A stretch of 64,000 nt of DNA, from the IMG/VR virus record IMGVR_UViG_3300030376_007244. The stretch is one strand, 5' to 3'. The translations under genes and the position numbers were made by a program. A model generated the notes under the pieces. It was given only the letters and a program-made list of their open reading frames with translations. It was not told the DNA's origin and ran no database searches. The DNA is from an uncultured virus (IMG/VR IMGVR_UViG_3300030376_007244). Its lineage: Duplodnaviria > Heunggongvirae > Uroviricota > Caudoviricetes. Positions within the stretch are counted from its first letter, which is position 1, and each line of letters opens with the position of its first letter. Shown here piece by piece: positions 1 to 56,359 of this stretch.

Positions 1-3000
1 AACCAAGGAAATACTGGATCCACTGGTGGAACTGGACCGACAGGAAACACTGGACCCACTGGAGCTCAAGGTGCCGAAGGTAACTTTGGTGGTGCAACGT
101 TTGCATATACTTTTGAGACAAACACTAATAATACAAACCCAGGTGCTGGTGATATTAGACTTGATAATGCTACACAAAATGCAGCAACAGGAATTTACAT
201 ATGTGATACTGATGAGGATGGTAATGACATACAATCTTTTATGCGTACTATTGATGATTCAACAAGCACAATTAAAGGTCACGTTAAGATCTCAAATAAA
301 TTAGACTCGGCACAATTTCTACTGTTTACTATTTCAAGTTTATCAGAAGAAAGTGGTTATTTCGATATTACAGTAAGTGCCATAGATTCTTCAGCTACAA
401 ATCCATTTACCGCGAACGAAGATATTTTAATCACCTTTGCTAGAACAGGTGATAAGGGAGATACAGGTGCCACTGGACCAACTGGATCTACTGGACCACA
501 GGGAAACCAAGGTAATACTGGCCCAACTGGAGCTCAGGGCAATCAAGGAAACACAGGACCCACAGGACCTCAGGGAAATCAAGGTAACACCGGACCTACA
601 GGACCTCAAGGCAATCAGGGAAATACTGGACCTACTGGACCCCAAGGTAACCAAGGCAATACTGGACCAACAGGACCTCAAGGTAATCAGGGAAATACTG
701 GACCAACAGGACCTCAAGGTAATCAGGGAAATACTGGACCTACTGGAGGAACTGGACCTACTGGAAATACTGGACCTCAAGGAAACCAAGGAAACACCGG
801 GCCTACAGGACCACAGGGAAATCAGGGCAATACTGGACCGACAGGACCGCAAGGAAACCAAGGCAATACTGGAGCTACTGGTGGAACAGGGCCAACAGGA
901 AATACTGGACCGCAAGGAAACCAAGGCAATACTGGACCAACTGGTCCGCAGGGAAATCAGGGAAATACTGGAGCTACTGGTGGAACTGGACCTACTGGAA
1001 ACGTAGGACCTACTGGACCAACTGGACCTGCTGGACCACAGGGAAATCAGGGTAATACTGGACCTACTGGACCTCAAGGAAATCAGGGTAATACTGGAGC
1101 TACCGGATCCCCTGGAAATAATTCAAACGTAGCAGGACCTCAAGGAAACCAAGGAAATACTGGGTCTCCTGGAAATAATTCAAACGTAGCAGGACCTCAA
1201 GGAAACCAAGGAAATACTGGACCTACTGGACCCCAAGGCAATCAAGGTAACACTGGTCCAAACGGTCCACAGGGAAACCAAGGAAATACTGGAGCTCCTG
1301 GAAACAATTCAAACGTAGCAGGACCTCAAGGAAACCAAGGAAATACTGGAGCTTCATCAAACGTAGCAGGACCTCCTGGACCAACTGGACCTGGATCAAA
1401 TGTTGCTGGACCTCAAGGAAACCAAGGAAATACTGGAGCTTCATCAAATGTTGCTGGACCTCCTGGACCAACTGGACCTGCATCAAACGTAGCAGGACCT
1501 CAAGGAAATCAGGGTAATACTGGAGCTTCATCAAATGTTGCTGGACCTCCTGGACCAACTGGACCTGATGGACCAACTGGACCTGATGGACCAACTGGAC
1601 CAACGGGGCCAAATGCTGGAATAACTTCATACACAAATAACGGTAATGACAGAGTAATAACATCTGTAAATTCATCTACAATAAACGCTGAATCTGCTCT
1701 AATATTTGATGGTCGTAACTTAGGTGTCGGTAATAACCCAAACTATGAATTAGATGTATCCAATACTGGTCTTACTGAGGGTAGAATAAGAGCAACTTCA
1801 GCTGGAAGAGCAAGGTTACACTTAGATGGATATAACGACATAGCAGAAATTTACTTTGCTAGAACTGGTACAAACAAATCTGCAATATATCAAGACTCAT
1901 CTGGAACAGTGTTAAATGTTTATAGTTTTCAAAATAATAATGAAATAATGACGTGGGATTTTGTTAATGACAGAGTTGGTATCGATGATTCATCACCCTC
2001 ATATAAATTAGATGTAAATGGAACAGGTAGGTTTACAGGCGCATTGCAGCTTGATACTGCAGCTGCTCAAAATTCAGAAGCAACTTCATTGATGATAAAT
2101 GGTAGTGGTGTAATTGGTACGAGAGAATTAGGAAGTAATGCTTTCAATAGTACAGCATTTACTACAAACACTGGTACAGTTACATCTGTGGCAACTTCTG
2201 GTAATGTAAACGGAATAACCTTAACAGGTGGAACTATTACTACATCAGGTACCGTTACATTGGGTGGAACGCTTTCTATCAACAACGGTGATTGGAGTGG
2301 TACAGATTTAGCAGTTGCAAATGGTGGTACTGGAGCAAGTGATACTTCTACTGCTCGTTCAAATTTAGGCTTACAGATTGGTGTAGATGTACAAGGATAT
2401 GATGCTGACTTAGCCGCTATTGCAGGTCTTACACCAGCCGACGGATCATTTATAGTTGGAACAGGTACAAGTGCTGGTAATTGGGCGGTTGAGACGGGAT
2501 TAGTTGCTGTAGGTAATGCCCTAACTTCATTTACTACATTCTCAGGCGCTGCAGCAAATACTCCTTTGGGTGCAGATCTTATTCCCATCTATGACTCGGA
2601 TCAAGGTGCTTGGAAAAAAGACACAATAACCAACGCTGCATTACAGGGACCTACTGGACCACAAGGAAACCAAGGAAATACTGGAGCAACTGGAGGAACT
2701 GGACCTACTGGAGGAACTGGACCTACTGGAGGAACTGGACCTGCTGGACCTACTGGACCTGATGGACCTGCTGGACCTCCTGGACCAACTGGAGGAACTG
2801 GACCTACTGGAGGAACTGGACCAACTGGACCTGCTGGACCAACTGGACCAACGGGGCCAAATGCTGGGATAACTTCATACACAAATAATGGAAATAACAG
2901 AATACTAACATCTGTTGATTCATCTACTATCAATGGTGAAGCTAGCTTGACTTTTGATGGTACTGAACTCTTATCGCTAGCTGGTGGAGGATCTCAAGCT

Positions 3001-3684
3001 CAGTTTTTGATGAACGATACCCAACACCATGGTGGAAACGCTGGTATTTCAATTCAAAGTAATACCATAACCCTTGGTGACATAAACAACAATGATATGT
3101 GTGATAGAATATTTTTCCAAGTTATGGGTGGTGCCAGAATGACAATTAATGATTCAGTAGTCTCAGTGGATGAACCATTCGTTTGTACAAACGGAGATTC
3201 GACTTCTCCAGGTCTTCAATTTGGTAGTGCTAATGATGGGTTCTTCCATGATACTTCTGATCCAGGTCAGGGTATAAAGATGATGGTAAACAACGCCAAC
3301 GAATTTTTATTTGCTAATGGCGGTGACTTTCACGCTGATGCCGATGTAATTGCTTTCTCTACTACAATCTCAGATAAAAGACTAAAGGATAATGTTGTAA
3401 CCATTGAGTCGCCTATGGATAAAATAAAAAGACTTCGAGGAGTTGAGTATGTTTGGAATATTGGTAAGAGAAAAGGGAAAAAAGATTTAGGTGTAATTGC
3501 TCAAGAAGTAGAAAAAGTAATACCAGAAATTGTTAAAGAAAAATATATGCCATTCATAGATGATACAGACACAAAGTATAAAACTGTTGATTATGAAAAA
3601 TTAACAGCAGTTCTCATAGAGGGTATAAAAGACCAACAAAAACAAATCGATGAACTTAGACGAGAAGTAGAGGAGCTGAAATAA
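1..3684 (+). CDS. Collagen-like tail fibre with C-terminal Peptidase S74 intramolecular chaperone; 5' end lies outside the window
   Basis: Frame 1 is open from base 1 ([10 protein letters not shown]...[10 protein letters not shown]...), so the ATG at 241 is internal. Long G-X-Y tracts; C-terminal [12 protein letters not shown]...LRGVEYVW...[13 protein letters not shown]...VDYEKL plus coiled coil is typical of S74. Confidence 0.9.
448..1614 (+). repeat. Collagen-coding tandem repeats (36-nt unit [12 protein letters not shown] and variants)
   Basis: Many near-identical ggacctcaaggaaaccaaggaaatactggacc units, no unique spacers; limits approximate. Confidence 0.9.
2647..2862 (+). repeat. Second collagen tract of fibre 1 (GPT/GGT/GPA triplets)
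   Basis: Tandem ggacctactggaggaact units; limits approximate. Confidence 0.85.
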
Positions 3685-4496
3685 TGGCAGTTCCTGGCAG
3701 CGGTGAACTTAGTTTACTACAAATTTGGAATGAGAAAAATGAAAGTGATTATACTTCTACTAATCAAGATGGTGAGAGTGATTTTAGTTTAAGGGGGATG
3801 TCTGATGATAATATCAGTGACAGTAGTGGTGGAAATATAACTATAAATACTGCTGGTGGTGGTAATGGTTTACAGACTCAGAATCAACCACACTCAGCGA
3901 GTGAGTTTTATGGTTATGACCATGATGCTGTTGCACTTCCATCGGTAGGTGCTTATGGTAATAGTAACTCTACCATAATGTTTTCAGGAAATCAAGGTAC
4001 TAGTTTAGTAACCGTTTCGAATATAGACTTATCATCAGCAGCTTATGTAGGACAATCACTCATCGGTGCGACAGGTCACATTTTCTTTAGGTTTGAGTCA
4101 GGAACATCTTTTAGATCTGATGCTCAGTTGACCAGACTAATTTACAACGGTGGTTCTGTATTCAAATCATTTTCTTCATCAGGAGTCAATGGTATTTTAA
4201 CAACAGATGAAACCACCAATGCAGCATACGATCACAGTGCTACATTTAATCAAGTTGGTACGAGTACTTCAAATAGAGGAAGTTGGGTTCAACTTAATGG
4301 TACACCACCTTCAGGTCAAACAGGTGTAAATGCAGATGCTATTTATTACGAATCAAGTGGTAATCAAGGAAGAAACAAAGATGTTTATCTAAGGTTTCCT
4401 GAGATTACTTTTTCTTCCAATACTATGACTTATGAAGGTTATGGTTACGGATCAAACATGGGTACTCTGTACTTAGGTATTTACATAACGGGATAA
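3684..4496 (+). CDS. Fibre-associated protein, possible distal adhesin
   Basis: N-terminus [17 protein letters not shown] resembles the MALPSSGxISL start common after S74 fibres; Ser/Gly/Thr-rich body; TAATG coupling to fibre. Confidence 0.6.
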   Translation: MAVPGSGELSLLQIWNEKNESDYTSTNQDGESDFSLRGMSDDNISDSSGGNITINTAGGGNGLQTQNQPHSASEFYGYDHDAVALPSVGAYGNSNSTIMFSGNQGTSLVTVSNIDLSSAAYVGQSLIGATGHIFFRFESGTSFRSDAQLTRLIYNGGSVFKSFSSSGVNGILTTDETTNAAYDHSATFNQVGTSTSNRGSWVQLNGTPPSGQTGVNADAIYYESSGNQGRNKDVYLRFPEITFSSNTMTYEGYGYGSNMGTLYLGIYITG

Positions 4497-4500
4497 TGAT

Positions 4501-4746
4501 ATGAGTCTAATACACAGTGGAAGTTGCGATGGTACAACACAATTATCCGAATCAATATACATATGCAGAACAGAAGATTATAGTATCATTAGTACAAAGG
4601 GAGCGACTTCAGGTTCATTACTAAAAATATCTTCAACTCACAATATGGATAGTGATGATGAAGAGATAGGTGACTTTATAACGGGCTCATTTTGTCCAGA
4701 ATGTAATGTGTTTTGGGTAGGAAATGATGTTAGTGGTTCGTATTAA
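4501..4746 (+). CDS. Hypothetical protein with CPEC motif
   Basis: 81-aa ORF filling the gap in the operon; Cys-rich. Confidence 0.6.
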   Translation: MSLIHSGSCDGTTQLSESIYICRTEDYSIISTKGATSGSLLKISSTHNMDSDDEEIGDFITGSFCPECNVFWVGNDVSGSY

Positions 4747-4759
4747 TTTGACATAAGTT

Positions 4760-4767
4760 ATATTTAT
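4760..4767 (+). promoter_or_regulatory. Putative late promoter core ATATTTAT
   Basis: Same core recurs upstream of sheath, tube and tape-measure units. Confidence 0.5.
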
Positions 4768-4790
4768 TATTATAATCAATAGGAAATAAA

Positions 4791-7700
4791 ATGGCAGGTT
4801 CACCTCCAGCTGATTCACCCTCACCAGGGTTTGCAACACCACCAAGAACTCTTAAAGGATCATTACGAGTAAAAAAGAGATTCTTTACTAAGGTGTCATC
4901 CTCTAATCAAAGATCGTTTATTTCCAGTTCAGTAGATAAAGAGATGGAATCATCAGATGGTAAATTTGGTGATAAAGCCATACACGCGTATGACTCAGCA
5001 TCTAAAACCCATTTAGTATCAGAAGAATTTTTTGAAGAGGTTTCTAAGTCTAGAGAATCTGGTCAGTTTATATATGATAGTGCTATGGCACCATATACTG
5101 CTCCTATTATGCTGAGTGTAGAAGAACTTAGGGAAGATGTAGAAGATATATTTCAATACGTTACTGGGTCTGGTGTACAGGGAAATCAAGGGGCAGCAGG
5201 TCCACAGGGTGCAGCAGGATCAAATGGAAGTAATGGACCACAGGGTCCGACTGGTCCTGATGGTAGAGATGGAGCAAATGGATCACCAGGCAATAATGGT
5301 AATAGAGGTGCACAAGGAGCTGCAGGAAATAATGGTGCACAGGGGAATAATGGTGCACAAGGAAATCAAGGTCCTCAAGGTTCTGAAGGTAATTTTGGTG
5401 GAGCTACTTTTCAATACAGATATAATAGTCAAGCTAACAGTGGAGACCCAGGTAGTGGAGCATTCATCACAAACAAGTCTACACAAAATGCATCAGACGT
5501 TATCATGGTCGATGATCTAGATGCTGGTAGCGAAGATATACAAACATATTTACGAACAATAGACGATTCTACTAGTACAATAAAAGGACATGTAAAAATG
5601 TCTTTACGTACAGACAGTGATAAATTTATTATGATGACCATCACTCGTGTAACTGAAGAAACTGGATACTTTGCCATTTCTGGAGGAGTTGTTGCTTCAT
5701 CAGATTCAAGTCCATTTAGTAACGGTGATTTTTGTATATTAACGTTTGCAAGAACTGGTGATAAGGGTGATACTGGATCTCAAGGTGCAAGAGGTGCACA
5801 AGGAGCAGCTGGAGCTCAAGGAAACACAGGAGCAGATGGACCAGCTGGAAATGATTCAAATGTTGCTGGTCCTCAAGGACAAAGAGGAGCACAAGGGGTA
5901 AGAGGAGCAGATGGACCAAATGGACCACAGGGTAATACTGGTGCACAAGGAAATCAAGGAAATACTGGACCAGCTGGAAACGATTCAAATGTAGCGGGTC
6001 CCCAAGGACCAAGAGGAAACACTGGAGCTGCTGGTGGAGACGGTAAACCTGGTACTGATGGAGGCACAGGAGCTCAGGGACAAAGAGGTGCACAAGGTTC
6101 AACTGGAGCTAACGGACCAAATGGACCACAAGGTAATACAGGAAATCAAGGAAACCAAGGTAATACTGGACCTCAGGGAAATCAAGGAAATACCGGACCA
6201 CAGGGATTAAGAGGAGCACAAGGCTTAACTGGGTCACAGGGAAACCAGGGAAGAACTGGCCCACAAGGTGCAGCTGGAAACAATGGAAGTAACGGAGCTC
6301 AAGGTGCACAAGGAAACCAAGGAAATACAGGAGCACAGGGTCCACAAGGAATATCTGGAGATTCTAACAAACATCTAAGTTTAGTTGTTGGGTCCAACAT
6401 GTCAGTAGATCAAACTGGACATAAGTTTTCTAAGACAGCTAACGATGCAAGTTGGAATGGTGAAGTAAGATCTGGAACTGGTTATAAAAGTGGATGCGTA
6501 ATTATAGTTTCACCAAATCAGACAAATAAATATTTTATGATTGGTTTAAATACTGATCCTGCAACAAATACTAGTTACAGTTCAATAGATTATGCTCTGT
6601 ATTTACATGGCGGTGGTGTTATAAAAATATATGAAGGTAGTTCTAATCCTTATAATGGAGGAGCGTATTCTGCTGGGGATATTTTTGCAATCACATATGA
6701 TAATGATAAAATTAGATACTATCATAATGGTAGTCTTTTAAGAACAGTTGATGTTTCGGCTGATTTAACCTTTTACTTAGATTCTTCATTTTACAATACA
6801 GGTACAGATCTAACTAGACACGTTTCTTTTTTACCAATGGGTCAAGTCGGACCTACAGGACCACAAGGTAATACAGGAGCACAAGGTCCTCGTGGAAACA
6901 CTGGAGCTGCTGGCGCAGATGGTAAGCCTGGAACAAACGGAAGCAACGGTGCACAAGGAGCAGCTGGAATAAACGGAAGTAACGGAGCTCAAGGAAACCA
7001 GGGTAATACTGGAGCTTCATCAAATGTTGCTGGACCACAAGGAGCAGCTGGTAATAATTCTAATGTTGCAGGTCCTCAAGGATTAAAAGGTGCACAGGGA
7101 AATCAAGGTAATACAGGGTCTCCTGGAAATAATTCAAATGTTGCAGGTCCACAAGGACCAGCAGGAAACAATTCAAATGTTGCAGGTCCTCAAGGATTGA
7201 GAGGTGCACAAGGTGCAAGAGGTGTACAAGGATCAGCTGGAAGTAATGGAGCACAGGGACCAGCAGGAAACGATGGAAGTAATGGAAGTAACGGAGCTCA
7301 AGGACCAAGGGGAAACACTGGAGCTGCTGGCGCAGATGGTAAGCCTGGAACAAACGGAAGTAATGGAGCACAGGGAAACCAGGGAAGAACTGGCCCACAA
7401 GGTGCAGCTGGTAATAATGGAAGCAATGGAGCACAAGGACCAGCAGGAAACAATGGAAGCAATGGAGCACAAGGAGCAGCTGGTAATAATGGAAGTAACG
7501 GTGCACAGGGAGCAGCTGGATCAAACGGAAGTAATGGAGCACAAGGACCAACTGGACCAAATGGACCTCCTGGAAACAATGGAAGCAATGGAGCACAAGG
7601 TCCTCGAGGATTTAATGGTACACTGGGTGCAGCAGGACCACAAGGACCAACTGGACCAGCAGGACCAGCTGGTAATAATGGCGCAGCTGGACCACAAGGA

Positions 7701-7850
7701 CCAACTGGACCAGCAGGATCGGCAGGACCACAAGGACCTTCAGGTGCTAGCAATAGTGCATTCACTGGAAACCAGGTGGTTGTATATAATGCTAAGGGTC
7801 AAACAGTAACATTTACATTTGATAAGGGAATATGTACTAGAATAAGATAG
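4791..7850 (+). CDS. Second collagen-like fibre protein with an internal lectin/SPRY-like beta domain (about 6363-6839)
   Basis: Three G-X-Y tracts (about 5172-5396, 5757-6362, 6840-7748); globular domain shared with fibre 1; beta-rich domain FMIGLNTDP...IDYALY...YSAGDIFAITYDNDKIRYYHNG. Confidence 0.85.
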   Translation: MAGSPPADSPSPGFATPPRTLKGSLRVKKRFFTKVSSSNQRSFISSSVDKEMESSDGKFGDKAIHAYDSASKTHLVSEEFFEEVSKSRESGQFIYDSAMAPYTAPIMLSVEELREDVEDIFQYVTGSGVQGNQGAAGPQGAAGSNGSNGPQGPTGPDGRDGANGSPGNNGNRGAQGAAGNNGAQGNNGAQGNQGPQGSEGNFGGATFQYRYNSQANSGDPGSGAFITNKSTQNASDVIMVDDLDAGSEDIQTYLRTIDDSTSTIKGHVKMSLRTDSDKFIMMTITRVTEETGYFAISGGVVASSDSSPFSNGDFCILTFARTGDKGDTGSQGARGAQGAAGAQGNTGADGPAGNDSNVAGPQGQRGAQGVRGADGPNGPQGNTGAQGNQGNTGPAGNDSNVAGPQGPRGNTGAAGGDGKPGTDGGTGAQGQRGAQGSTGANGPNGPQGNTGNQGNQGNTGPQGNQGNTGPQGLRGAQGLTGSQGNQGRTGPQGAAGNNGSNGAQGAQGNQGNTGAQGPQGISGDSNKHLSLVVGSNMSVDQTGHKFSKTANDASWNGEVRSGTGYKSGCVIIVSPNQTNKYFMIGLNTDPATNTSYSSIDYALYLHGGGVIKIYEGSSNPYNGGAYSAGDIFAITYDNDKIRYYHNGSLLRTVDVSADLTFYLDSSFYNTGTDLTRHVSFLPMGQVGPTGPQGNTGAQGPRGNTGAAGADGKPGTNGSNGAQGAAGINGSNGAQGNQGNTGASSNVAGPQGAAGNNSNVAGPQGLKGAQGNQGNTGSPGNNSNVAGPQGPAGNNSNVAGPQGLRGAQGARGVQGSAGSNGAQGPAGNDGSNGSNGAQGPRGNTGAAGADGKPGTNGSNGAQGNQGRTGPQGAAGNNGSNGAQGPAGNNGSNGAQGAAGNNGSNGAQGAAGSNGSNGAQGPTGPNGPPGNNGSNGAQGPRGFNGTLGAAGPQGPTGPAGPAGNNGAAGPQGPTGPAGSAGPQGPSGASNSAFTGNQVVVYNAKGQTVTFTFDKGICTRIR

Positions 7851-7864
7851 TACAAAAAAATTAG

Positions 7865-7890
7865 TTTTAGAATTTTAATTTAATATATAT
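7865..7890 (+). promoter_or_regulatory. Putative middle-class promoter TTTT-N14-ATATATAT
   Basis: TTTT at 7865, ATATATAT at 7883; same 18-nt offset at several other intergenic sites. Confidence 0.6.
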
Positions 7891-7907
7891 TATAAAAGAG
7901 GTTTTTC

Positions 7908-8501
7908 TTGCGAGGTGAATGGTGTTATTATAAACAAGCTTTTACAGAGGCCGAATGTGACGAGATAGTCAACATTGGGTTGTCAGGAGATTTAGGGTCT
8001 GGTGTTGTTGGAGATGGAGAATGGGGAAACTCTGACAGTATAACAGATTATGATATGAGAAATAGCGACCTAAGGTTTATAAATCCTGGTGAACTTGGAA
8101 CACAATGGATATTTGATAAAATGTGGAGATTGGCTTTAGAAGCAAACAAACAGTGGTTCAGTTTTCATTTAGAAGAAATAGAAAGTTTTCAATTTACACA
8201 GTACGATGGTAGCAAGAAGCAACATTATAGAGAACACGTTGATGTTTTTTGGGTTACTCGTAAACCTTCACATAGAAAATTATCAGCTGTAGTACAGTTA
8301 TCACATTCAGATGCATACATAGGTGGAGATTTAGAATTTAGACGTTTAGATGAATATCCTGATGATGGCCAAAAAGCTGAAATGAGATTAAAGGGATCAG
8401 TAATATTTTTCCCTTCGTTTGTTAGTCATTTAGTTTCCCCAGTAACATTGGGTATGAGACATAGTTTAGTAGTTTGGATTGACGGTCCAAAATGGAGATA
8501 A
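7908..8501 (+). CDS. 2OG-Fe(II) oxygenase, prolyl-4-hydroxylase/PKHD-like
   Basis: HVD...RKLSAVVQLS...GGDLEF...FFPSFVSHLVSPVTLGMRHSLVVW gives HxD..H triad and RxS; TTG start after GAGG. Confidence 0.85.
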   Translation: MRGEWCYYKQAFTEAECDEIVNIGLSGDLGSGVVGDGEWGNSDSITDYDMRNSDLRFINPGELGTQWIFDKMWRLALEANKQWFSFHLEEIESFQFTQYDGSKKQHYREHVDVFWVTRKPSHRKLSAVVQLSHSDAYIGGDLEFRRLDEYPDDGQKAEMRLKGSVIFFPSFVSHLVSPVTLGMRHSLVVWIDGPKWR

Positions 8502-8502
8502 A

Positions 8503-9540
8503 GTGAAACGGTTTTGTATCAATACACTAACTCATTCTGGAGAGAATAGAGTACAGCTTTTAAAAAAGACCATTGATCTGTTTGTGGACAATACAAACTT
8601 CGATACGTTAGATTGGTTTATTTACATAAATGGGTCAGATAAATCATATGATGGAATAGAAAGAGAATTTACTTCTAAATATCCACACATCAAGTGGAAC
8701 ATTACACATTCAAGTGTAAATTTTGGTGTTGGAGCTGGTATAAACAAACTAAATAGTTATTCTAAGGATTATGAATATACCTTGTTTTTAGAAGGTGATT
8801 GGTTTACTGTACCAGAAAATTTATCATTTATTGGTAAAGATTGGTTGAATACATCTTTGGATTTGTTAGATGAATCAAATATATCTCAAATCTTTCTTAG
8901 AAAATATATCGATGACATGGACGATAGACAATATGGGTATGGATACTGGATTAGGGAAAACAATATAACTTCATCAATTACAAAAAACGAAATAGAATAT
9001 TTAGTGTTGAAAGAGAAAGAGTACAGTAATAATCCACATATAAGAAGAAATTCTGACTATTATGATGTTGGTATATTTCCATTAACTGAGTTCTATGATG
9101 AAGATGGTAATCCAACAGAAATAAAAGGAAATAAGGATTGGGGACAAGCAGAAATTACAGCTGAAAATTTGGGAAAGCAACTATCAACTGTTTACATAAA
9201 GTTTGGAAAGTTTATTCATGGTGACAGGTATGATAGAAATATGAATGAAATAGGACTTAGAGGTTGTGGAGGATGTAAATTTGGATTAATGGAACCAACT
9301 AAGTGGTGGTGTTCTGCCTGTACAGATGATGATGAATTTACACAGTTTGAACAGCAACAGTGGTATTATGAACGAGAGTTGGATAGTGTGATAAAAGAAA
9401 ACAAAGACGATCCAGATAAAATATATGAGGTAGCAAGAAAATATCACAGAGCAGATCAAGATTATATAACAAAGGTTAGACTACCAAACTATAAACTTTC
9501 TATAGATGAGCTAAATGAAAACGAGCGGTTTGAAAGATAA
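8503..9540 (+). CDS. GT-A fold glycosyltransferase-like protein with Cys-rich C-terminal part
   Basis: YINGS...NFGVGAGINKL...YTLFLEGDW follows the GT2 pattern (ExD for DxD); GTG at 8503 after GGAG preferred to 8479. Confidence 0.6.
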   Translation: MKRFCINTLTHSGENRVQLLKKTIDLFVDNTNFDTLDWFIYINGSDKSYDGIEREFTSKYPHIKWNITHSSVNFGVGAGINKLNSYSKDYEYTLFLEGDWFTVPENLSFIGKDWLNTSLDLLDESNISQIFLRKYIDDMDDRQYGYGYWIRENNITSSITKNEIEYLVLKEKEYSNNPHIRRNSDYYDVGIFPLTEFYDEDGNPTEIKGNKDWGQAEITAENLGKQLSTVYIKFGKFIHGDRYDRNMNEIGLRGCGGCKFGLMEPTKWWCSACTDDDEFTQFEQQQWYYERELDSVIKENKDDPDKIYEVARKYHRADQDYITKVRLPNYKLSIDELNENERFER

Positions 9541-10433
9541 TGCAAGTACCAGATTTATTTTGTCATAATACTAATATTGAAACATTCTTTATGCATGTTG
9601 AAGATTCTAATATGAATGGATGGATAGCATCTACAGTTCCAATTGATACAATATCTATTGGAGAACGATCGTTGGTTTTTGATAGAAATAGTGTAAGAAA
9701 TGATGTTCAAGATTCATTGAATAATAATTCTGTAGCGTATTCGGTACAGTTTCCAAGATCTAGAGAAAGTTCTACAGATCCGATATGGGTTAATGGGCAA
9801 AATGCTGGAACTCTGTTTAAATATTATGTTTACCATTCTGGTTTTAATGTAAAAAATAATGATTTAGATATGGTAGTTGTAGAAAATTTTTATGATGATC
9901 CAGATATGGTTAGGGAGTTTGCTCTAAATTTAGAATATGGGGTAAACACTGCACACAGAGGATATTCTGCAAATTCATGGACATTGGATGGGACCAAGGA
10001 AAGATTCGAACAAATACTGCAAACTGAAATATTAGATTGGAACGACTCAAGATATAGAAATGGAATGTTTCAATATATTACTGGTAAAGACCCAATCGTT
10101 CACCATGTAGATGAAAACAATTATGCTGGAATAATCTATTTAACACCAGATGCACCGTTTGAAAGTGGTACTAGCTTTTACGAAAGCAAGTCTGAACGTA
10201 GAAGCTGGTTCAATCATGACCCAAATGATCGGGAAGCATATGAAAGAGCCTTCGAAGGTAATTTTTACAACAGACATAAGTTTACAGAGATAGATAGAAT
10301 AGGAAACGTTTATAATAGGTTAGTATTGTGGGACTCATTTAAGATACACGCCGCAACGCAGCATTTTGGAAATGACATGTACGATTCTAGATTGTTTCAT
10401 ATATTCTTTTTTGATACAGATGGAGGAAAGTAA
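9540..10433 (+). CDS. DUF6445-like 2OG-Fe(II) oxygenase with N-terminal extension
   Basis: VVENFYDDPDMVREFAL, HVD, AGIIYLTPDAP..SGTSFY, NVYNRLVLWDS..IHAA, SRL. Confidence 0.7.
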   Translation: MQVPDLFCHNTNIETFFMHVEDSNMNGWIASTVPIDTISIGERSLVFDRNSVRNDVQDSLNNNSVAYSVQFPRSRESSTDPIWVNGQNAGTLFKYYVYHSGFNVKNNDLDMVVVENFYDDPDMVREFALNLEYGVNTAHRGYSANSWTLDGTKERFEQILQTEILDWNDSRYRNGMFQYITGKDPIVHHVDENNYAGIIYLTPDAPFESGTSFYESKSERRSWFNHDPNDREAYERAFEGNFYNRHKFTEIDRIGNVYNRLVLWDSFKIHAATQHFGNDMYDSRLFHIFFFDTDGGK

Positions 10434-10434
10434 A

Positions 10435-12276
10435 TTGAAAATTAACGTTATAACAAGGTGTACTAGGCTTGATAACATATTAGAAGTCGGAGAATCAGTT
10501 AGTTCTGAATTTGCAGAATGGCATGTTATATTTGATACGTCAGTATTACGAGATATACCAACAAAATTAATTGATTCTCTACAGTCTATTCAAAATACAA
10601 AGTTACATTTTATACACGGAAAAGAGGGCGATTTATTATATCCACAATCTATGCAGGTTATTAGAGAAATTAAAGATGGTTGGATAATATACATAGACGA
10701 TGACAATATACAGCATGAAAATTACTATTCGTTAATATCGAAGGCTATCATTGATAAGTCTTGGGCTGGTGGTGAGACAATCAAAAAGATTATTATTGGA
10801 AAGCAGTTTGTAAACTTTAAAGATTTTACGGAATTGGAATATAGAGATGCAGCACCTGAACATACAAAATATCAACACATTGATTTGGCACAAATAACTT
10901 GGCACCATTCAGTTTTTAATGATTACGATTTCATAGGAGATTATGCAGCTGATGGTAAATTAGTAGAACAAATACATAATGAACACCCAGAATGGTTTAA
11001 ATTTATAAACGAAACCATATGTTATTACAATTATTTGGTAAAGCCACACAAGAGTTTTGTACCAAAAATATTGTACGTAGGTCCAGGAAAACCAGATTTG
11101 AAATCTAATCAGTTTGAAGAATGGGAAGAGAGTTCATTAAACACTTTACACGTTGAAAACGATAAAGGAATAGCTAGCGTTATAACTGATTTTAAACCAG
11201 ATTCAATATTAACTGTTTCTGATGATGACATAACTGAAAACCCAGAATTGTGTACAATGTCATTAGAGATTAGAAATAAATGGTTTAATATAAAAAGTTT
11301 GGATAGTGAAATATTAGCTGGAGACATTGCTTATGGTGTAGCAATGAACAATATGATAGAGAATCAGGTTTTGAAAGATTATGTTTCATGGTTCACTCCA
11401 ATATACAACACTGGGAAAAAACTATATCGTACATATGAATCACTAAAAAACCAAACAAATCCAAACTGGGAATGGGTTTTAGTAAACGATTCAAATGATG
11501 GTTCTAAAACCATATCTATAGCCGAAGATATTGCATCATCAGATCCAAGAGTTAAACTGTATGACTTCAATACTAAATGTAATGGTATTGTTGGAGAGGC
11601 AAAGTATAGAGCAGCTGTATTATGCAAAGGCGAACTTTTATCCGAGTTAGATCATGATGATTATTTAACCCCAGACGCAACACAATTATTATACGATGCA
11701 ATGGTTGCATATCCAGACGCTGGATTTTATTATACTGATTGCGTAGAGGTTGATGAAAATTGGAATTCATTGCAGTATGGAGAAGGGTTTGCAATGGGCT
11801 ATGGTACATATAGAGATGAAGAAAGTATGGGTAAACAGTTTAAAGTACAAGTTGCACCAAACTTAAATCCAAAAACAATACGACACATAGTTGGTGTTCC
11901 AAATCATATAAGATCTTGGAGAAGAAATACATACTTTGAAATGGGTGGTCACAACAGAGGTTTATCTATAGCTGATGATTATGAATTACTGGTTCGAACA
12001 TTTTTGTCTACTAGGATGTGTAGAATAGTTAAACTAGCTTATGTACAGTTTATATATGATGATGCTTCAGGAACAAACACTCACAATTCTTCTAGACGAG
12101 ACATACAACGTAGAGTTAGAACAGTAGCTAATCATTATGATGCTGATATTACAAGAAGATTCCAAGAGCTAGGACTTGAAGATTGGGTAGCTGGAACTCC
12201 ACAACAAGTAGTTGCAGACGTAGAATCTAGATTTGGTGAAGAAGAATGCGTAGCAAACTATAATTATATACCATGA
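10435..12276 (+). CDS. Two-domain GT2 glycosyltransferase
   Basis: First GT-A domain (INVITRCTR, YIDDDN, AADG) and second (VSWFTPIYN, WEWVLVNDS, ELDHDD, ADDYEL); TTG at 10435 after GGAGG preferred to 10366. Confidence 0.85.
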   Translation: MKINVITRCTRLDNILEVGESVSSEFAEWHVIFDTSVLRDIPTKLIDSLQSIQNTKLHFIHGKEGDLLYPQSMQVIREIKDGWIIYIDDDNIQHENYYSLISKAIIDKSWAGGETIKKIIIGKQFVNFKDFTELEYRDAAPEHTKYQHIDLAQITWHHSVFNDYDFIGDYAADGKLVEQIHNEHPEWFKFINETICYYNYLVKPHKSFVPKILYVGPGKPDLKSNQFEEWEESSLNTLHVENDKGIASVITDFKPDSILTVSDDDITENPELCTMSLEIRNKWFNIKSLDSEILAGDIAYGVAMNNMIENQVLKDYVSWFTPIYNTGKKLYRTYESLKNQTNPNWEWVLVNDSNDGSKTISIAEDIASSDPRVKLYDFNTKCNGIVGEAKYRAAVLCKGELLSELDHDDYLTPDATQLLYDAMVAYPDAGFYYTDCVEVDENWNSLQYGEGFAMGYGTYRDEESMGKQFKVQVAPNLNPKTIRHIVGVPNHIRSWRRNTYFEMGGHNRGLSIADDYELLVRTFLSTRMCRIVKLAYVQFIYDDASGTNTHNSSRRDIQRRVRTVANHYDADITRRFQELGLEDWVAGTPQQVVADVESRFGEEECVANYNYIP

Positions 12277-13004
12277 TAACAATAGTAATACCAACACTTT
12301 GGAGATCTCCAGAAACTTTACATAGTACGATAGAATCATTCAAGCGGACATTAAAGGACTATCCAAACAATGAACTTATACTGATAGACAATGCCAATTC
12401 TGATTTTAAAGATGACATAGTTAATGTTGTGAAACCTAGAAAAAATATAGGTGTTAACCCAGCATGGAATGTTGGAGCAGATATGGCATATAATGAACAT
12501 GTATTATTTATGAATGATGATATTACTGTAAACTTTAAACCCGTTTTAGAATGCCTATATAGGGATTTAGAAGGTTTAAAATATGGTACAATTACTGGAG
12601 ACAAGGAACGTATAGCTACAGAGGGTTTAAATGTTAACGATGATGGCGATACAATAGAGTTGACTAGGGACCATTCTGGTAGGTTTTTTGGGTTCGGCTG
12701 CTTCTTTATGGTACAAAAAGAATTGTATCACCATATACCAAAACGTTTTAAATATTTTTGGGGGGATGATTGGTTGTTCTATATTTTGGAACACTTACGC
12801 CAAAGAAAGTCTTATTTTTTTAAAAACTTAAATTTACCCGGTAAAATGTCAGTAACATCCAATGACATAGACCACGAGAATAATCATGAGGAAAACGACT
12901 GGTGGACACCCACTACTCAAGCTGCTCATGATTATTATAAAAGACTAAACAGTGCCTTGTTCAGAGGTGATTTTATAGACGATAAGAACGGACATCAGCA
13001 TTAA
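12273..13004 (+). CDS. GT2 glycosyltransferase
   Basis: ITIVIPT, LILIDN, NIGVNPAWN, LFMNDDI, YFWGDDW. Confidence 0.85.
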   Translation: MITIVIPTLWRSPETLHSTIESFKRTLKDYPNNELILIDNANSDFKDDIVNVVKPRKNIGVNPAWNVGADMAYNEHVLFMNDDITVNFKPVLECLYRDLEGLKYGTITGDKERIATEGLNVNDDGDTIELTRDHSGRFFGFGCFFMVQKELYHHIPKRFKYFWGDDWLFYILEHLRQRKSYFFKNLNLPGKMSVTSNDIDHENNHEENDWWTPTTQAAHDYYKRLNSALFRGDFIDDKNGHQH

Positions 13005-13036: not shown

Positions 13037-13059
13037 AATAAATAGTTATGGAGAATAAA

Positions 13060-37648: not shown

Positions 37649-37665
37649 TTTTACACAAAAAGCGG

Positions 37666-37699
37666 ACAGGCAGACGGCACACCTGTAGAAAAATGTGCC
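37666..37699 (+). promoter_or_regulatory. H-type RNA pseudoknot in the leader of the TonB receptor gene
   Basis: S1 ACAGG(37666-70)/CCTGT(37682-86); S2 GGCACA(37676-81)/TGTGCC(37694-99); A-rich loop AGAAAAA. Confidence 0.65.
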
Positions 37700-37729
37700 A
37701 CTTACTAATCAAAAGCAAGGAGACAGATT

Positions 37730-46990: not shown

Positions 46991-48481
46991 ATGTACAAGG
47001 TCGGTGATATTCGTAATGGATACGAAGTGCTGCCGAAAGAAGAACGCAAAACCATACTCTTATTGAGTGATGATATGCGTATGACATCTGGAGTTGGAAA
47101 TATGTCCAGAGAAATTGTTATACAAACTATTCATAGGTTTAATTGGGTTCAAATCGGCGGGGCTATCAGTCATCCTGATAACGGAAAAAATGTTGATATG
47201 AATGAAGACATAACAAACAGAACTGGTGTTCCAGATTGCAATGTAAAGGTACACCCAGTTAATGGTTATGGTGATCAAATGCTCGTAAGAGGTTTAATGG
47301 GTCACTACAATGTAAGTGGCTTAATGATTTATACAGACCCAAGATTTTGGGAATGGTTGTTTCAGATGGAAAGAGAGATAAGACAAGATGTACCGATTAT
47401 GTACTATAATATTTGGGACGATTTGCCATATCCAATGTGGAATCAAAAATATTATGATTCAGTAGATGCGTTGTTTAACATATCTAAGCAAACAGTTAAC
47501 ATAGTTAACAATGTTAGATCAGAGATTGAGCCATGGCAATCAACCTACATACCTCATGGAATAAATGAGGAAGATTATTTTCCCATTGATGAGTCATATG
47601 AGAAGCATGACGATTTTTTAAAGTTTAAAGAACAACTCACACGGAAGGGCAAAAAGAAATTTGTAATCTTTTATAATGCTAGAAACATTCGTAGAAAACT
47701 TCCAGGTGATATAGTTTATGCGTATAGAACATTTTGCGATCAGCTTACAAAGGAAGAAGCTGATGAATGTTTATTGTTAATGCACTGTGCACCTAGAGAT
47801 CAGAATGGTACAGACTTACCAAATCTTGTTGAGAATTTGTGTCCAGAATATGATGTTGCATTTTCAGATCATAAATACGAAAGAGAACAGATGAACTGGT
47901 TGTATAATTCTGCAAATGTATCTATATTGATTAGTTCTAATGAAGGCTTTGGTTTAATGGGTGCAGAAACATTAATATGCGGTACTCCATTACTTGTTAA
48001 CGTATCTGGTGGAATGCAAGATTATTGTGGATTTAAAAAAGAAGATGGATCATATTTGACAGTAGATGATTACACGACAGAATGGGGATCTAATCACGAT
48101 GGTCGGTATAAAGATCATGGTGAATGGGTTTTCCCAGTGTGGCCACAATCTAGGTCACTTCAGGGTTCTGTACCGACACCATACATTTCAGACGATAGAC
48201 CTGATTTTCAAGATGTGGCTATTCAGTTACTGACTGCTTACAGATTGGGACCAGATGAACTAAGACGTAGAGGATTAGAAGGTCACAAATACGTAATGAA
48301 TCCAGAATATGGATTTACAGCTTCGGAAATGGGTAGAAGGTTTATAAACGATATTGATACAACGTTTGAGAAGTTCGAACCACGAGATAGGTTTGAAATA
48401 ACAAATGCAATTACGTATACTAAACCTCAGCCTAAATTTAATGGATTAACACTTAGTAAGGAGATTATTGCAAATGTATAA
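46991..48481 (+). CDS. GT-B (GT4-like) glycosyltransferase
   Basis: ILLLSDD..SGVG, YIPHGI, RNIRRK, SSNEGFGL..AE..ICGTP. Confidence 0.88.
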   Translation: MYKVGDIRNGYEVLPKEERKTILLLSDDMRMTSGVGNMSREIVIQTIHRFNWVQIGGAISHPDNGKNVDMNEDITNRTGVPDCNVKVHPVNGYGDQMLVRGLMGHYNVSGLMIYTDPRFWEWLFQMEREIRQDVPIMYYNIWDDLPYPMWNQKYYDSVDALFNISKQTVNIVNNVRSEIEPWQSTYIPHGINEEDYFPIDESYEKHDDFLKFKEQLTRKGKKKFVIFYNARNIRRKLPGDIVYAYRTFCDQLTKEEADECLLLMHCAPRDQNGTDLPNLVENLCPEYDVAFSDHKYEREQMNWLYNSANVSILISSNEGFGLMGAETLICGTPLLVNVSGGMQDYCGFKKEDGSYLTVDDYTTEWGSNHDGRYKDHGEWVFPVWPQSRSLQGSVPTPYISDDRPDFQDVAIQLLTAYRLGPDELRRRGLEGHKYVMNPEYGFTASEMGRRFINDIDTTFEKFEPRDRFEITNAITYTKPQPKFNGLTLSKEIIANV

Positions 48482-49763
48482 GCCAACAGTAGTCGTGACT
48501 TCTCCAGCTGCAACGAGATCTGGATATGGATCTAGGGCTAGAGATGTTATACGAGCATTGATTGATATTGGAAAATACGATGTGCATGTTAATTTGGTTC
48601 CATGGGGTAATACTCCACAAAATGCATTATCGATGGATGATCCAAAAGATAAGATGATCATTGATAGAATAAACTATAATATTGATTTTCAACCTGATGT
48701 ACATGTTCACATTGTTGTACCAAATGAATTCACACCAGCAGGAAAGTTTAATATAGGAATAACTGCAGGATTAGAAACAACGTTGATACCTCAAAGTTGG
48801 ATTGACGGTTGCAATAGAATGGATTTAGTATTAGCCAGTTCAAACTTCTCTGCACAAACTATGGTATCTACAGAGTTTAGAAACGATCAAACAAAGGAAG
48901 TTTTAAAGATAACAAAACCAGTTGGTGTATTATTTGAAGGAGCAGATACAAATCTATACAAGATTACAGATGAATGTTCTGTACCATTAGCTGAGCAGAT
49001 GGATAAAATAAAGGAATCATTTAATTTCTTATTTGTTGGACATTGGCTCCAAGGTGGATTAGGAAGAGATAGAAAAGATGTTGGAATGTTAATTAAAACG
49101 TTTTTAGAAGCTTACACATCTAAGCATAATGTTGGATTAATATTGAAAACATCTGGTGCTACACCTTCAAAAATAGATTATCAAGATTTAATTCATAAGG
49201 TTGAAGAAATAAAGAAAATAGTTAACAATCCAGATCCACCAAACATATACATTCTACATGGAGATCTTCATGATTATGAAATGAATCAACTTTATAATCA
49301 CCCTAAAGTGAAGGCACATGTTACGTTTACACACGGTGAAGGTTTTGGAAGACCATTATTGGAAGCGTCCTTATCTGCTAAACCAGTATTGGCACCAGGT
49401 TGGAGTGGTCACGTAGACTTTTTAGATAAGAAATATGCTGTGTTATTTGGTGGTGGTTTAGTTGGCGTAGGAGAAGACGCACTACCTGAACAAATATTTA
49501 TGAAGGAAATGAAGTGGTTTATGGTCAATCATAAGCAAGCTGCATCAACTATGAAAAATGTTAAACGTAATTATAGGCGTTTTAAGATTGCAGCTAGAAA
49601 GTTAGCTAAGCAAAATGCGGCTAAGTTTTCATTTAAATCTATGGTAAGCCATTTGAACACTATACTTGATCAGAGTCTGCCAAAGTTTACACAGACTGTT
49701 GATGTCAAACTACCAAATCTAAAAAAGCTACCTAAAAAACTACCTAAATTGGAGAAAGCATAA
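48468..49763 (+). CDS. GT-B (GT4-like) glycosyltransferase
   Basis: RSGYG..ARD, FLFVGHW...DRKD, HGEGFGRPLLEA..KPV..GWSGHVDF; start may be ATG 48474. Confidence 0.88.
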   Translation: MQMYKPTVVVTSPAATRSGYGSRARDVIRALIDIGKYDVHVNLVPWGNTPQNALSMDDPKDKMIIDRINYNIDFQPDVHVHIVVPNEFTPAGKFNIGITAGLETTLIPQSWIDGCNRMDLVLASSNFSAQTMVSTEFRNDQTKEVLKITKPVGVLFEGADTNLYKITDECSVPLAEQMDKIKESFNFLFVGHWLQGGLGRDRKDVGMLIKTFLEAYTSKHNVGLILKTSGATPSKIDYQDLIHKVEEIKKIVNNPDPPNIYILHGDLHDYEMNQLYNHPKVKAHVTFTHGEGFGRPLLEASLSAKPVLAPGWSGHVDFLDKKYAVLFGGGLVGVGEDALPEQIFMKEMKWFMVNHKQAASTMKNVKRNYRRFKIAARKLAKQNAAKFSFKSMVSHLNTILDQSLPKFTQTVDVKLPNLKKLPKKLPKLEKA

Positions 49764-50200
49764 TGGAAAGAGTTGTAGATTGTCCACACTGTGGAGATGA
49801 AGATAGGTGTTTTGAAGAAATGCAAGATGGATACAGTAGCTTTATGTGCTTTAACTGTGGATTCATGAGTGATACAAGGTTTACAGAAGAAAACGAAGCT
49901 AAAATGGATAGAGATACTAGCATACTTATTAATAGATTAAGTTGGTATGATGAAATCGGTAAGATATATTGGTTTCCAACTGTATTGAATATGGGTCAAA
50001 AGTTAGGTATGATATTTCCAGAAGGAACAGAAGAAGAGTGGAGATGGACCTATGCAAAAACAGTTCCAATTCCAGAAGAAAAGAAAGCTGCAATGGGAAA
50101 TCATGATTATATGTTAGATGTTGATAATGCAAAAACATATGATAAGTTGGATTTTTTAACTGCATGTAAAGATATGGGAATAGCCAAAGACATCAAATGA
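49763..50200 (+). CDS. Zn-ribbon hypothetical protein
   Basis: CPHC and CFNCG motifs. Confidence 0.7.
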   Translation: MERVVDCPHCGDEDRCFEEMQDGYSSFMCFNCGFMSDTRFTEENEAKMDRDTSILINRLSWYDEIGKIYWFPTVLNMGQKLGMIFPEGTEEEWRWTYAKTVPIPEEKKAAMGNHDYMLDVDNAKTYDKLDFLTACKDMGIAKDIK

Positions 50201-50673
50201 AAAACATCTCATGGAATATTGTAAGACAGGGTGATATTGTCCAGTTTAGATATAAGGGTGTTAGACCCAATGCAAAAGCTAGAATTAGAACAGTTTTGGT
50301 ATTGAATGCAAACCATAAAAAGTCTGTAAAAGATGGAACGGTAAGGTTGGTACACGGTATTGAACTTACTGCAATACCTTCAAGAGTGGGTGTAATAACT
50401 AAACAAGAAAAAGAACGAATGGTTGTTGCAGCTGCAGAAGCACGTGGACTGGAATACAGGCAATTGGATAAGTCTGTAGAAAGGATTGCAATTGTTGAAG
50501 GTAATGCTAAGTCCATATATGCACAACTTAGAACTATAGTGTCTAAACATGGTAACTATAGGACATACAGATATGATAGAGCCAAGAAATACCCAGTAAG
50601 ATTAGACACTGAGTATGACTGGCCTAAGGTTTTAGTCGACGAGTTAAAAGTAAAATTTAATTCACCAAAATAA
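50197..50673 (+). CDS. Hypothetical protein
   Basis: ATGA-coupled basic 158-aa ORF (GDIVQFRY, YRTY). Confidence 0.65.
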   Translation: MKNISWNIVRQGDIVQFRYKGVRPNAKARIRTVLVLNANHKKSVKDGTVRLVHGIELTAIPSRVGVITKQEKERMVVAAAEARGLEYRQLDKSVERIAIVEGNAKSIYAQLRTIVSKHGNYRTYRYDRAKKYPVRLDTEYDWPKVLVDELKVKFNSPK

Positions 50674-50685
50674 ACAGGAGGTTAT

Positions 50686-51279
50686 ATGTTAACGGCAATT
50701 GGCGATGTAATGCGAGAAGCATATAAACGCGGATGGATAACCACAAGAGATGGGAATATCTCTGTAAAAATGCGAGGTAGAAAAACCTTGTACATCACTC
50801 CGTCCGGTTGGAGAAAAACAATAATTCATCCAGAACACGTAGTAAAATTAAGATACGAAGACAATAGAAAATTAATCGTAAGAAAAAATAATGCCAGTGG
50901 TGAATTACATATGCATCACTTGATTCAATCTGGAACTATGAGTACAACATCAGTTGTACATTTACACCCAACTTACACGATAGCGGCAATGCATGCAGGA
51001 CATGATCTACAAAAAGTGGCTAGAGATTTTCCAGAGATTAGTCGATACACCAAAGTAGGACGAACAGTTCCAGAGCTTCCACCAATATCTGAAGAACTGG
51101 GATTGGCAACTGCTGATGCAATTGGAACAGGTGAAGGTGAAGATAACATACAGTATGATATTGTTGGACAAGAAGCACACGGTGTATGTGCAGTTGGTTG
51201 TAACCCATGGGATGCATTCGAACACATAGAACGATTAGAACATATTTGTCAAATTGTTTTAGCTTCTGGAAAATTATAA
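50686..51279 (+). CDS. Class II aldolase/adducin family protein
   Basis: DGNIS, ITPSG, SGELHMH, VVHLHP, HGV, IERLEH. Confidence 0.9.
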   Translation: MLTAIGDVMREAYKRGWITTRDGNISVKMRGRKTLYITPSGWRKTIIHPEHVVKLRYEDNRKLIVRKNNASGELHMHHLIQSGTMSTTSVVHLHPTYTIAAMHAGHDLQKVARDFPEISRYTKVGRTVPELPPISEELGLATADAIGTGEGEDNIQYDIVGQEAHGVCAVGCNPWDAFEHIERLEHICQIVLASGKL

Positions 51280-51289
51280 CAATATATAT
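51264..51289 (+). promoter_or_regulatory. Putative middle-class promoter; ATG follows 5 nt after core (leaderless)
   Basis: TTCTGG at 51264, ATATATAT at 51282, ATG at 51295, no SD. Confidence 0.55.
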
Positions 51290-51294
51290 AATAA

Positions 51295-51918
51295 ATGAAA
51301 ATAAGTTACGCAGTTACAACACATCAAGAGCATGAGGAAATATCAAGGCTAATACCATTTTTATTGGAACATAAGGATGATGAAGATGAATTGGTTATTG
51401 TTGACGACTATTCTGATTATAAATGTTGGGCAACCTTTGATAAAGTAATACACAGAGAAGATGTTACATTTGTTGAGCACCAACTAAATAACGATTTTGC
51501 GGTACATAAGAACTTTTTAAATTCTAACTGTACTGGAGACTGGATTGTCAACATAGATGCTGATGAAATGCCTCATGAGCAGTTGATAAAAAACATAAAA
51601 CTGCTGATAGAAACAAACCCAACAGTTGAACTTTATTGGGTACCGAGAGTGAACACAGTAGATGGAATAACACCTGAACATGTTAGAGCATGGGGTTGGA
51701 ATGTTGATGATAAAGGATGGGTAAACTTTCCAGATCCTCAGCAAAGAATTTATAAGAACGCAGAGCATATTCAATGGGTTAGACCAGTTCATGAACGATT
51801 AATTGGTGCAGTACAAGATGCATACTTACCATTCGAAGAGGAATGGAGTTTCTATCATCATAAAACAATAAGCAAACAAGAACAACAAAATAAACACTAT
51901 ACGGAAATATTAAAATGA
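51295..51918 (+). CDS. GT2 glycosyltransferase
   Basis: ISYAVT, VIVDDYS, NIDADE, VPRVN, PDPQQRIY, VHE. Confidence 0.9.
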   Translation: MKISYAVTTHQEHEEISRLIPFLLEHKDDEDELVIVDDYSDYKCWATFDKVIHREDVTFVEHQLNNDFAVHKNFLNSNCTGDWIVNIDADEMPHEQLIKNIKLLIETNPTVELYWVPRVNTVDGITPEHVRAWGWNVDDKGWVNFPDPQQRIYKNAEHIQWVRPVHERLIGAVQDAYLPFEEEWSFYHHKTISKQEQQNKHYTEILK

Positions 51919-56357: not shown

Positions 56358-56359
56358 CG

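Follow-up and report, generated by a model that had tools for sequence, protein, structure and literature searches.

A five-gene block of putative oxygenases and glycosyltransferases beside collagen-like tail fibre genes of a large myovirus: candidate enzymes for collagen modification

Collagen modification is established in animals, giant viruses and spore-forming bacteria. Here we consider a candidate system of this kind from a bacteriophage: a block of five genes, coding for two 2-oxoglutarate (2OG)-Fe(II) oxygenases (OX1 and OX2) and three proteins with four glycosyltransferase (GT) domains of the GT-A type, which follows two collagen-like tail fibre genes in the uncultured aquatic virus IMGVR_UViG_3300030376_007244. 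The stretch analysed (the window, 64 kb) is the first part of a linear virus record of 121,140 bases (G000) with an estimated completeness of 64%, and its source is a large myovirus, the sheath protein of which is 49% identical to that of Microcystis phage Mel-JY01 and 39% to that of Flavobacterium phage immuto.

In Clostridioides difficile, the GT SgtA adds beta-O-GlcNAc to Thr residues in the repeats of the neighbouring BclA3 (PMC7157674), and the collagen-like protein BclA of Bacillus is described as glycosylated, too (PMC8968730). Our block resembles SgtA-BclA3, as far as the description of SgtA allows, in having a GT-A gene beside a gene for a GPT- or Thr-rich collagen-like protein, whereas it differs in its four GT-A domains (SgtA is a single GT with tetratricopeptide repeats, of which Pfam finds none in the three GT genes), in its two oxygenases and in the phage tail fibre as putative substrate. 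Mimivirus L230 is a virus-encoded enzyme for the virus's own collagen and acts on Lys in the Y position of the Gly-X-Y triplets (PMC9614988). The combination of a 2OG oxygenase with a GT is shared with L230 and with the animal LH3/COLGALT1, and the encoding by a virus for its own collagen with L230, but Y-Lys is nearly absent from the two fibres (1 of 147 and 2 of 181 triplets) and OX2 matches the domain of L230 at Z 10.4, below OGFOD1 and PHD. The block would work like SgtA-BclA3 and mimivirus L230, yet is a member of neither. In the cuticle collagen of the worm Riftia pachyptila, stability is attributed to glycosylated Y-Thr in place of Y-hydroxyproline (PMC11766948); a Y-Thr glycan as stabiliser is also what we propose here, although Riftia uses animal enzymes. 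Iyer (2010; PMC2938197) predicted collagen-like or tail-collar proteins as the substrates of bacterial hydroxylase-sulfotransferase operons, which share with our locus a 2OG oxygenase, a transferase, a collagen-like substrate and a logic drawn from gene neighbourhood; they consist, however, of beta-hydroxylase/phytanoyl families and sulfotransferases in bacteria, instead of GT-A, PKHD-type and DUF6445 proteins in a phage. The PKHD-type 'P4HA' genes of cyanophages and pelagiphages are reported to belong to the most frequent auxiliary genes of aquatic phages and to have cryptic substrates (PMC9301287), whereas OX1 has a specific candidate substrate next door, and phage GT islands are usually interpreted as genes for the host lipopolysaccharide (PMC7029224). 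In the literature covered, which excluded subscription journals, we found no paper demonstrating collagen modification in a bacteriophage and none naming DUF6445.

The five genes lie in the order PKHD-type oxygenase (OX1), GT-A protein of 345 amino acids (aa), DUF6445 oxygenase (OX2), double GT-A protein and further GT-A protein (Table 1). With the likely starts at 8503 (GTG) and 10435 (TTG), each preceded by a GGAG motif, all of them abut or overlap by 1-4 bases, and they form one tightly coupled operon. The first-pass annotation had described two long collagen fibres followed directly by this unit, just before the sheath gene; genes and order were found as described, except that two small genes separate the fibres, a 108-aa gene (13048-13374) stands before the sheath gene, in relatives with as well as without the five-gene unit, and fibre 1 is cut. 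The latter starts at window base 1, which is the contig start, lacks its 5' end and therefore exceeds 1227 aa; it carries a C-terminal S74 intramolecular chaperone. Its 147 triplets are rich in GPT (33), GNT (26), GNQ (22) and GPQ (21), with Pro in 45% of the X positions (X-Pro) and Thr and Gln in 52% and 31% of the Y positions. The G-P-T, G-N-T and G-P-Q richness claimed for both fibres therefore applies to fibre 1, but not to fibre 2, which is rich in GAQ, GPQ, GSN and GAA, contains globular interruptions and has only five GPT among 181 triplets (X-Ala 28%, X-Pro 22%, Y-Gln 33%). Y-Pro is as scarce as had been noted (3.4% in fibre 1, 3.3% in fibre 2), and charged residues make up 2.4% of the X and Y positions in the uncharged fibre 1 and 9.7% in fibre 2. 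Two oxygenases and four GT-A domains, as first proposed, were confirmed by Pfam, the ESM Atlas or the predicted fold.

Table 1. Features of the fibre and enzyme region and of the second sugar cluster (window coordinates)
Feature	Position	Strand	Basis
Collagen-like tail fibre 1, candidate substrate	1..3684	+	Pfam Collagen and Peptidase_S74; PHROG tail fibre; triplet counts
270-aa protein, no known family	3684..4496	+	no Pfam or PHROG match
81-aa protein between the fibres	4501..4746	+	no family assigned
12/12 sigma-70 consensus overlapping ATATTTAT motif	4748..4776	+	upstream of fibre 2
Collagen-like fibre 2, 1019 aa, candidate substrate	4791..7850	+	Pfam Collagen; PHROG tail fibre; triplet counts
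AT-rich promoter-like motif upstream of the operon	7883..7894	+	intergenic, chosen by eye
OX1, PKHD/P4H-type 2OG-Fe(II) oxygenase	7908..8501	+	PF13640, PKHD-type models, invariant residues
345-aa GT-A protein, no Pfam match	8503..9540	+	alignment of 88, AlphaFold model, Foldseek
OX2, DUF6445 2OG-Fe(II) oxygenase with N-terminal beta domain	9540..10433	+	DUF6445 match, model, alignment
Double GT-A protein, 613 aa	10435..12276	+	PF00535 3e-20, alignment, Atlas
GT2-family GT-A protein, 243 aa	12273..13004	+	Pfam, alignment
Second, larger sugar cluster	46991..64000 (to 64155 in G000)	+	gene annotation; carries AT-rich motif at 51282

That these enzymes have to do with collagen is suggested by the company they keep in other genomes. 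With a profile of the 345-aa GT, 69 loci were retrieved from viruses and 74 from metagenomes (single-sequence locus scans yielded only near-identical copies), and 142 loci were grouped into 44 lineages at 85% identity. In the 24 well-flanked lineages, the double GT is found in 23, the 243-aa GT in 22, OX2 in 17 and OX1 in 16, while the locus contains a collagen in 22 and a sheath gene in 8; the sheath is absent from 13 of the 20 lineages having 7 kb or more downstream, and 11 of these 13 still have the collagen. When the double GT served as anchor (193 loci, 46 lineages), collagen was present in 24 of the 28 lineages with at least 8 kb upstream, and the exceptions comprise one with a collagen just beyond the locus edge, two with a collagen elsewhere in the record and L089. 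Seen from the sheath gene (160 loci, 37 of them with at least 7 kb upstream, in 22 lineages and mostly fragment records), collagen lies upstream in 4 of 5 lineages with the double GT versus 3 of 17 without it (Fisher p 0.02).

The family of the C-terminal GT2 domain of the double GT (core GT) also occurs at 54 bacterial loci in several phyla, 28 of which contain a collagen. Restricted to the loci whose genomes were searched (n=50), collagen is found in 26 compared to at most 4.9 expected, and in 61 sampled genomes of one alphaproteobacterial order it accompanies the core GT in 5 of 5 genomes versus 1 of 56 without; kinship among the five GT-bearing genomes is possible, and the genome on which the sample was centred is one of them. 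Co-occurrence, named by the first-pass annotation as the test of its proposal, thus exceeds chance in phages and, separately, in bacterial chromosomes. Collagen can be predicted from the core GT family far better than the core GT family from collagen.

Several observations weigh against an enzyme block devoted to collagen. All of the support is guilt by association; collagen is found without the block in Mel-JY01, G056 and three records of 92-100% completeness, and of 80 Flavobacterium genomes that lack the core GT, 21 still carry collagen. The loci of five core-GT orthologues of Flavobacteriaceae (L237-L241) are free of collagen, one of their genomes having none at all, and the pre-sheath region is a hypervariable fibre island, which also gathers halogenases, sulfotransferases and other GTs. 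The many accessory enzymes of this island could mean that the block glycosylates other virion proteins (capsid, tube or non-collagen domains of fibres) and that collagen was merely collected alongside; glycosylation of mycobacteriophage capsid and tail tube has been published (as cited in PMC12619734), and in two lineages some 25 kb or more separate the double GT from any collagen. Such an explanation is nevertheless improbable, as the linkage holds in bacterial chromosomes of several phyla, where no virion context is required, as well as in phage loci away from the sheath, and non-collagen fibre islands were found without the block. More likely, the collagen fibres of the phage itself are what the GTs glycosylate, with Y-Thr and/or hydroxyproline as the probable sites; Thr is directly available in most fibres.

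Regarding OX1, the residues H110, D112, H174 and R184 are invariant in 28 homologues, their roles in the iron triad and as 2OG-binding Arg being assigned from motif position, and PF13640 supports a double-stranded beta-helix fold. The protein is 37-40% identical to the PKHD-type 2OG oxygenase genes of cyanophages and pelagiphages. The median X-Pro of the linked collagens is 35% with OX1 (15 lineages) versus 13% without (6 lineages; p 0.003), in a test that was spotted by eye as one of 44 and not corrected for kinship, and all ten OX1-less lineages have an X-Pro of at most 28%, corresponding to about four changes on a quick tree of the GT. OX1 was not found elsewhere in five of the OX1-less records, which are 9-52% complete. 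GPT is over-represented beside OX1 (observed/expected 1.32 and 1.33, medians 12% and 20%), whereas it is avoided in bacterial collagens irrespective of the core GT (0.27 with and 0.23 without it, medians 0%), and just one of the 21 collagen-bearing, core-GT-less Flavobacterium genomes has a weak OX1-like match. Caution should be taken in interpreting these numbers: five OX1-bearing lineages show an X-Pro of just 12-20%, the tracking of OX1 by X-Pro rests on only about four independent losses, other 2OG genes are present in some of the OX1-less lineages, and the GPT contrast partly splits phages from cells, OX1-less phages reaching 2.1. The nearest solved relatives of OX1 are PKHD/PiuC proteins (3e-13 in the profile search against the PDB), not prolyl 4-hydroxylases (5e-4); its relatives are without collagen in 13 of 27 loci of at least 15 kb and stand beside Pro-poor collagens in 3 of 26. 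Its relatives often lack a collagen, and complete genomes that have no double GT combine them with different sets of GTs; OX1 is hence a modular partner of broader use. From sequence comparison, hydroxylation of X-Pro in G-P-T and other G-P-X triplets may be its task in this phage, a tentative assignment to which we give slightly less than even chances. Hydroxyproline in the X position of Gly-Hyp-Thr was reportedly described as an extra stabilisation by Bann and Bachinger in 2000.

Other residues were considered as targets as well. X-Pro and Asn had both been suggested for the oxygenases at the outset; the former has some comparative support for OX1, but X-Asn does not covary with either oxygenase (p=0.2). 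Animal-style chemistry on Y-Pro (C-P4H, chlorovirus vCPH) was rejected with Y-Pro at about 3% here and a median of 1% in linked phage loci, and so was Lys chemistry of the L230/PLOD kind, given the Y-Lys counts above. Gln deserves more attention, since Y-Gln reaches at least 25% in 27 of the 31 linked loci of phages and in 24 of the 28 of bacteria, published averages being lower (13-18% in Table 4 of PMC3368898), and since some linked collagens lack Y-Thr or nearly lack Pro (a fragment in L088, L274, L278, L282). A chemistry directed at G-X-Q triplets, be it Gln hydroxylation or amide glycosylation, is still unlikely, because Y-Gln is about as high in the unlinked Flavobacterium collagens serving as control (median 35% in 21 genomes, compared to 39% and 41% in linked ones; p 0.09 and 0.05) and amounts to only 0-6% in three linked bacterial collagens.

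All four GT-A domains conserve a DxD-type metal motif in the alignments. In the 345-aa GT, E97-G-D99 and four C-terminal Cys residues, possibly forming a Zn site, are invariant; its profile gave no useful match to the PDB by sequence, so that a fold comparison was required, in which the AlphaFold model (mean predicted local distance difference test score, pLDDT, 94) matched TarS with Z 16.5 (root-mean-square deviation, rmsd, 2.9 over 193 aligned residues) and Foldseek likewise pointed to GT-A. The 613-aa protein consists of an N-terminal GT-A domain with a DDD motif (D88-D89-D90), a linker domain and the highly conserved core GT with DHDD (D406-H-D408-D409); the call for the N-terminal domain is based on Atlas features (residues 1-205, 0.98 to a GT-A cluster) and the motif and not on a structure model. 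NDD (N81-D82-D83) is invariant in the 243-aa GT. The core GT is probably dedicated to collagen and would place the first sugar of an O-glycan on Y-Thr or hydroxyproline; this glycan would be lengthened by the other three GT-A domains, perhaps with sugars from the second cluster. This cluster contains GT4s, GT2s, two epimerases, a formyltransferase, a UDP-GlcNAc 2-epimerase, a cytidylyltransferase, NeuB and TOD1/MUCI70, predicted to be enough for a nonulosonate or formamido-sugar glycan, and it possibly supplies donor sugars to the five-gene block.

The PDB and NCBIfam matches of the GTs are polysaccharide and teichoic-acid GTs. Together with the large sugar cluster, the fusions of DUF6445 to WavE, GT25 and FkbM and the proposal made for the fibre-island GTs of pelagimyophages (PMC7029224), they would also fit GTs that remodel the host surface polysaccharide for superinfection exclusion, with oxygenases tailoring the sugars. 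This would not predict the linkage with collagen, however, and the five proteins are without a membrane segment (at most 11 of 19 hydrophobic residues) and the block without a flippase or polymerase, which makes a function at the host surface quite improbable.

In OX2, H189, D191, H270 and R284 are invariant, with roles again assigned from motif position. Its profile gave no useful match to the PDB by sequence, and the family fold came from a predicted model (pLDDT 92), which shows the 2OG double-stranded beta-helix and best matches OGFOD1 (Z 13.6, rmsd 3.2, 162 aligned), PHD (12.9) and the EF-Tu prolyl 4-hydroxylase (12.8). PLOD-type hydroxylase domains rank below other 2OG enzymes (6ax6 Z 10.4, 8zgc Z 10.0), and NgTET1 stands at rank 31 (Z 10.2). 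These matches cover just residues 104-297; the N-terminal domain has no match in Pfam and no usable one in the Atlas. Of the DUF6445 homologues of at least 400 aa, 57 of 63, drawn from the best 150, were scanned: a GT-type domain is fused to DUF6445 in 21 of them and a methyltransferase in a further 15. One protein (P0256) joins DUF6445 to a domain resembling the N-terminal GT of the 613-aa protein, and the second BFVD match is a GT2 fusion from a giant virus. OX2 co-occurs with collagens of 0-8% X-Pro (L360, L297, L266, L282) and Pro is therefore unlikely to be its target; there is about an even chance that it acts inside the glycan pathway instead, either on a sugar or by making the acceptor hydroxyl. 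DNA hypermodification by a base hydroxylase and GT, or small-molecule synthesis, is very improbable, for although phage GTs are described to glucosylate DNA (PMC12619734), NgTET1 is among the fold matches and some variants of the island contain halogenases, the best fold matches of OX2 are protein hydroxylases and the block tracks collagen, not replication genes. Pfam gave no TET/JBP-type match for the oxygenases. The PHROG labels identified no DNA-modification cluster elsewhere in the genome, which is not used here as an argument.

Concerning the purpose of collagen glycosylation, a (Gly-Pro-Thr)10 peptide is reported to be a random coil that folds only once glycosylated (PMC11923368), and in Escherichia coli prophage collagens, produced recombinantly without glycosylation, stability was attributed to charge and X-Pro (PMC3368898). 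The helix of fibre 1 is uncharged and GPT-rich and would therefore need some stabiliser. In the mechanism we propose, the infected host cell would produce the enzymes in soluble form, and these would modify the fibre chains in its cytoplasm while the trimers fold or earlier. X-Pro would be hydroxylated by OX1, an O-glycan would be initiated by the core GT on Y-Thr or hydroxyproline and lengthened by the remaining GT-A domains, and OX2 would modify the sugar, for the sake of helix stability in fibre 1 and, as a second possible use, shielding. The pathway was first put forward as hydroxylation followed by glycosylation; co-occurrence speaks for enzymes that serve the collagen fibres, but does not establish the order; the core GT stands beside collagens without detectable OX1 in 28 bacterial loci. 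It is conceivable, if on balance doubtful, that large phages of aquatic habitats and some scattered bacteria have a hitherto undescribed route of collagen maturation in common, in which a PKHD-type oxygenase makes X-hydroxyproline in G-P-T and other G-P-X triplets, a dedicated GT2 family attaches the first sugar to Thr or hydroxyproline and DUF6445 oxidises the glycan as it grows, with enzyme sets matched to the repeat type (GT9/TibC-like with GTS/GSS).

New in this work are the linkage controls, the failed Gln test, the covariation of X-Pro and GPT with OX1 and a promoter-like motif. If true, the maturation pathway would assign a substrate to DUF6445 and to the 'P4HA' genes that abound in phages; the block points to named substrates and to five soluble enzymes amenable to work in E. 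coli, and it might serve as a prokaryotic toolkit where recombinant collagen is to be made stable in the absence of Y-hydroxyproline.

As to control elements, the AT-rich motif ahead of the operon was selected by eye from the same intergenic stretches it describes. All six of its copies are intergenic, standing before OX1, the 108-aa gene, a baseplate-hub gene, a polymerase-like gene and a GT2 of the second cluster (motif at 51282), and five close relatives have a similar motif upstream of OX1. A different motif, ATATTTAT, is shared by fibre 2 and the tail tube gene and also found upstream of further structural genes. This suggests that the operon is under a control separate from fibre 2 and common with the second sugar cluster. 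Scans for sigma-70 promoters and terminators were overall no better than chance (43 vs 38.8). Another intergenic, early-promoter-like element with AAAGCATGTAC has seven copies, all on the plus strand ahead of genes (window 40631 and 42304; G000 72097, 83726, 84425, 92366 and 97622).

The 270-aa protein behind fibre 1 has homologues in the same position behind the S74 gene of two relatives (L060, L220) and is probably a fibre accessory, not an enzyme. The Flavobacteriaceae orthologues without collagen (L237-L241) are orphan 410-aa proteins, 51-53% identical, at one chromosomal site of cultured strains, and group near phage sequences in the tree. In L160 (13867-15780), a homologue of the 243-aa GT shares one frame with an IS605-family TnpB-like sequence. 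An unrelated phage (L090, 5191-8641) has a G-X-Q/G-X-T collagen followed by two GT2 genes, SgtA-like by eye, and a relative of the core GT. Tryptophan-halogenase-like genes and extra 2OG oxygenases occur among fibre genes beside Gly-rich proteins in L116/L128, L146 and L393. A GTS/GSS repeat class was observed in L001 (Mel-JY01, 2-8430), L157, L161, L223, L229 and L429, with a Y-Ser of 30% in L157 and 59-86% in the others; by Pfam, L157 and L161 have GT9/TibC-like or GT4-methyltransferase neighbours, and a fusion in Mel-JY01 looks similar by eye. The repeat reading frame of Mel-JY01 lies on the plus strand, where the record annotates small coding sequences on the minus strand.

Elsewhere in the genome, a B12-dependent ribonucleotide reductase is followed by a TonB-dependent receptor (window 35636-40456), and DNA polymerase genes of two kinds, family-A-like and family-B, are located at window 26969-28270 and 42361-44793. 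There are two thymidylate synthases, ThyA (40693) and a second one at G000 80044, and two adjacent pilin-like genes at G000 67125-68262, of which the second matches a PHROG pilin (4e-7) and the first none.

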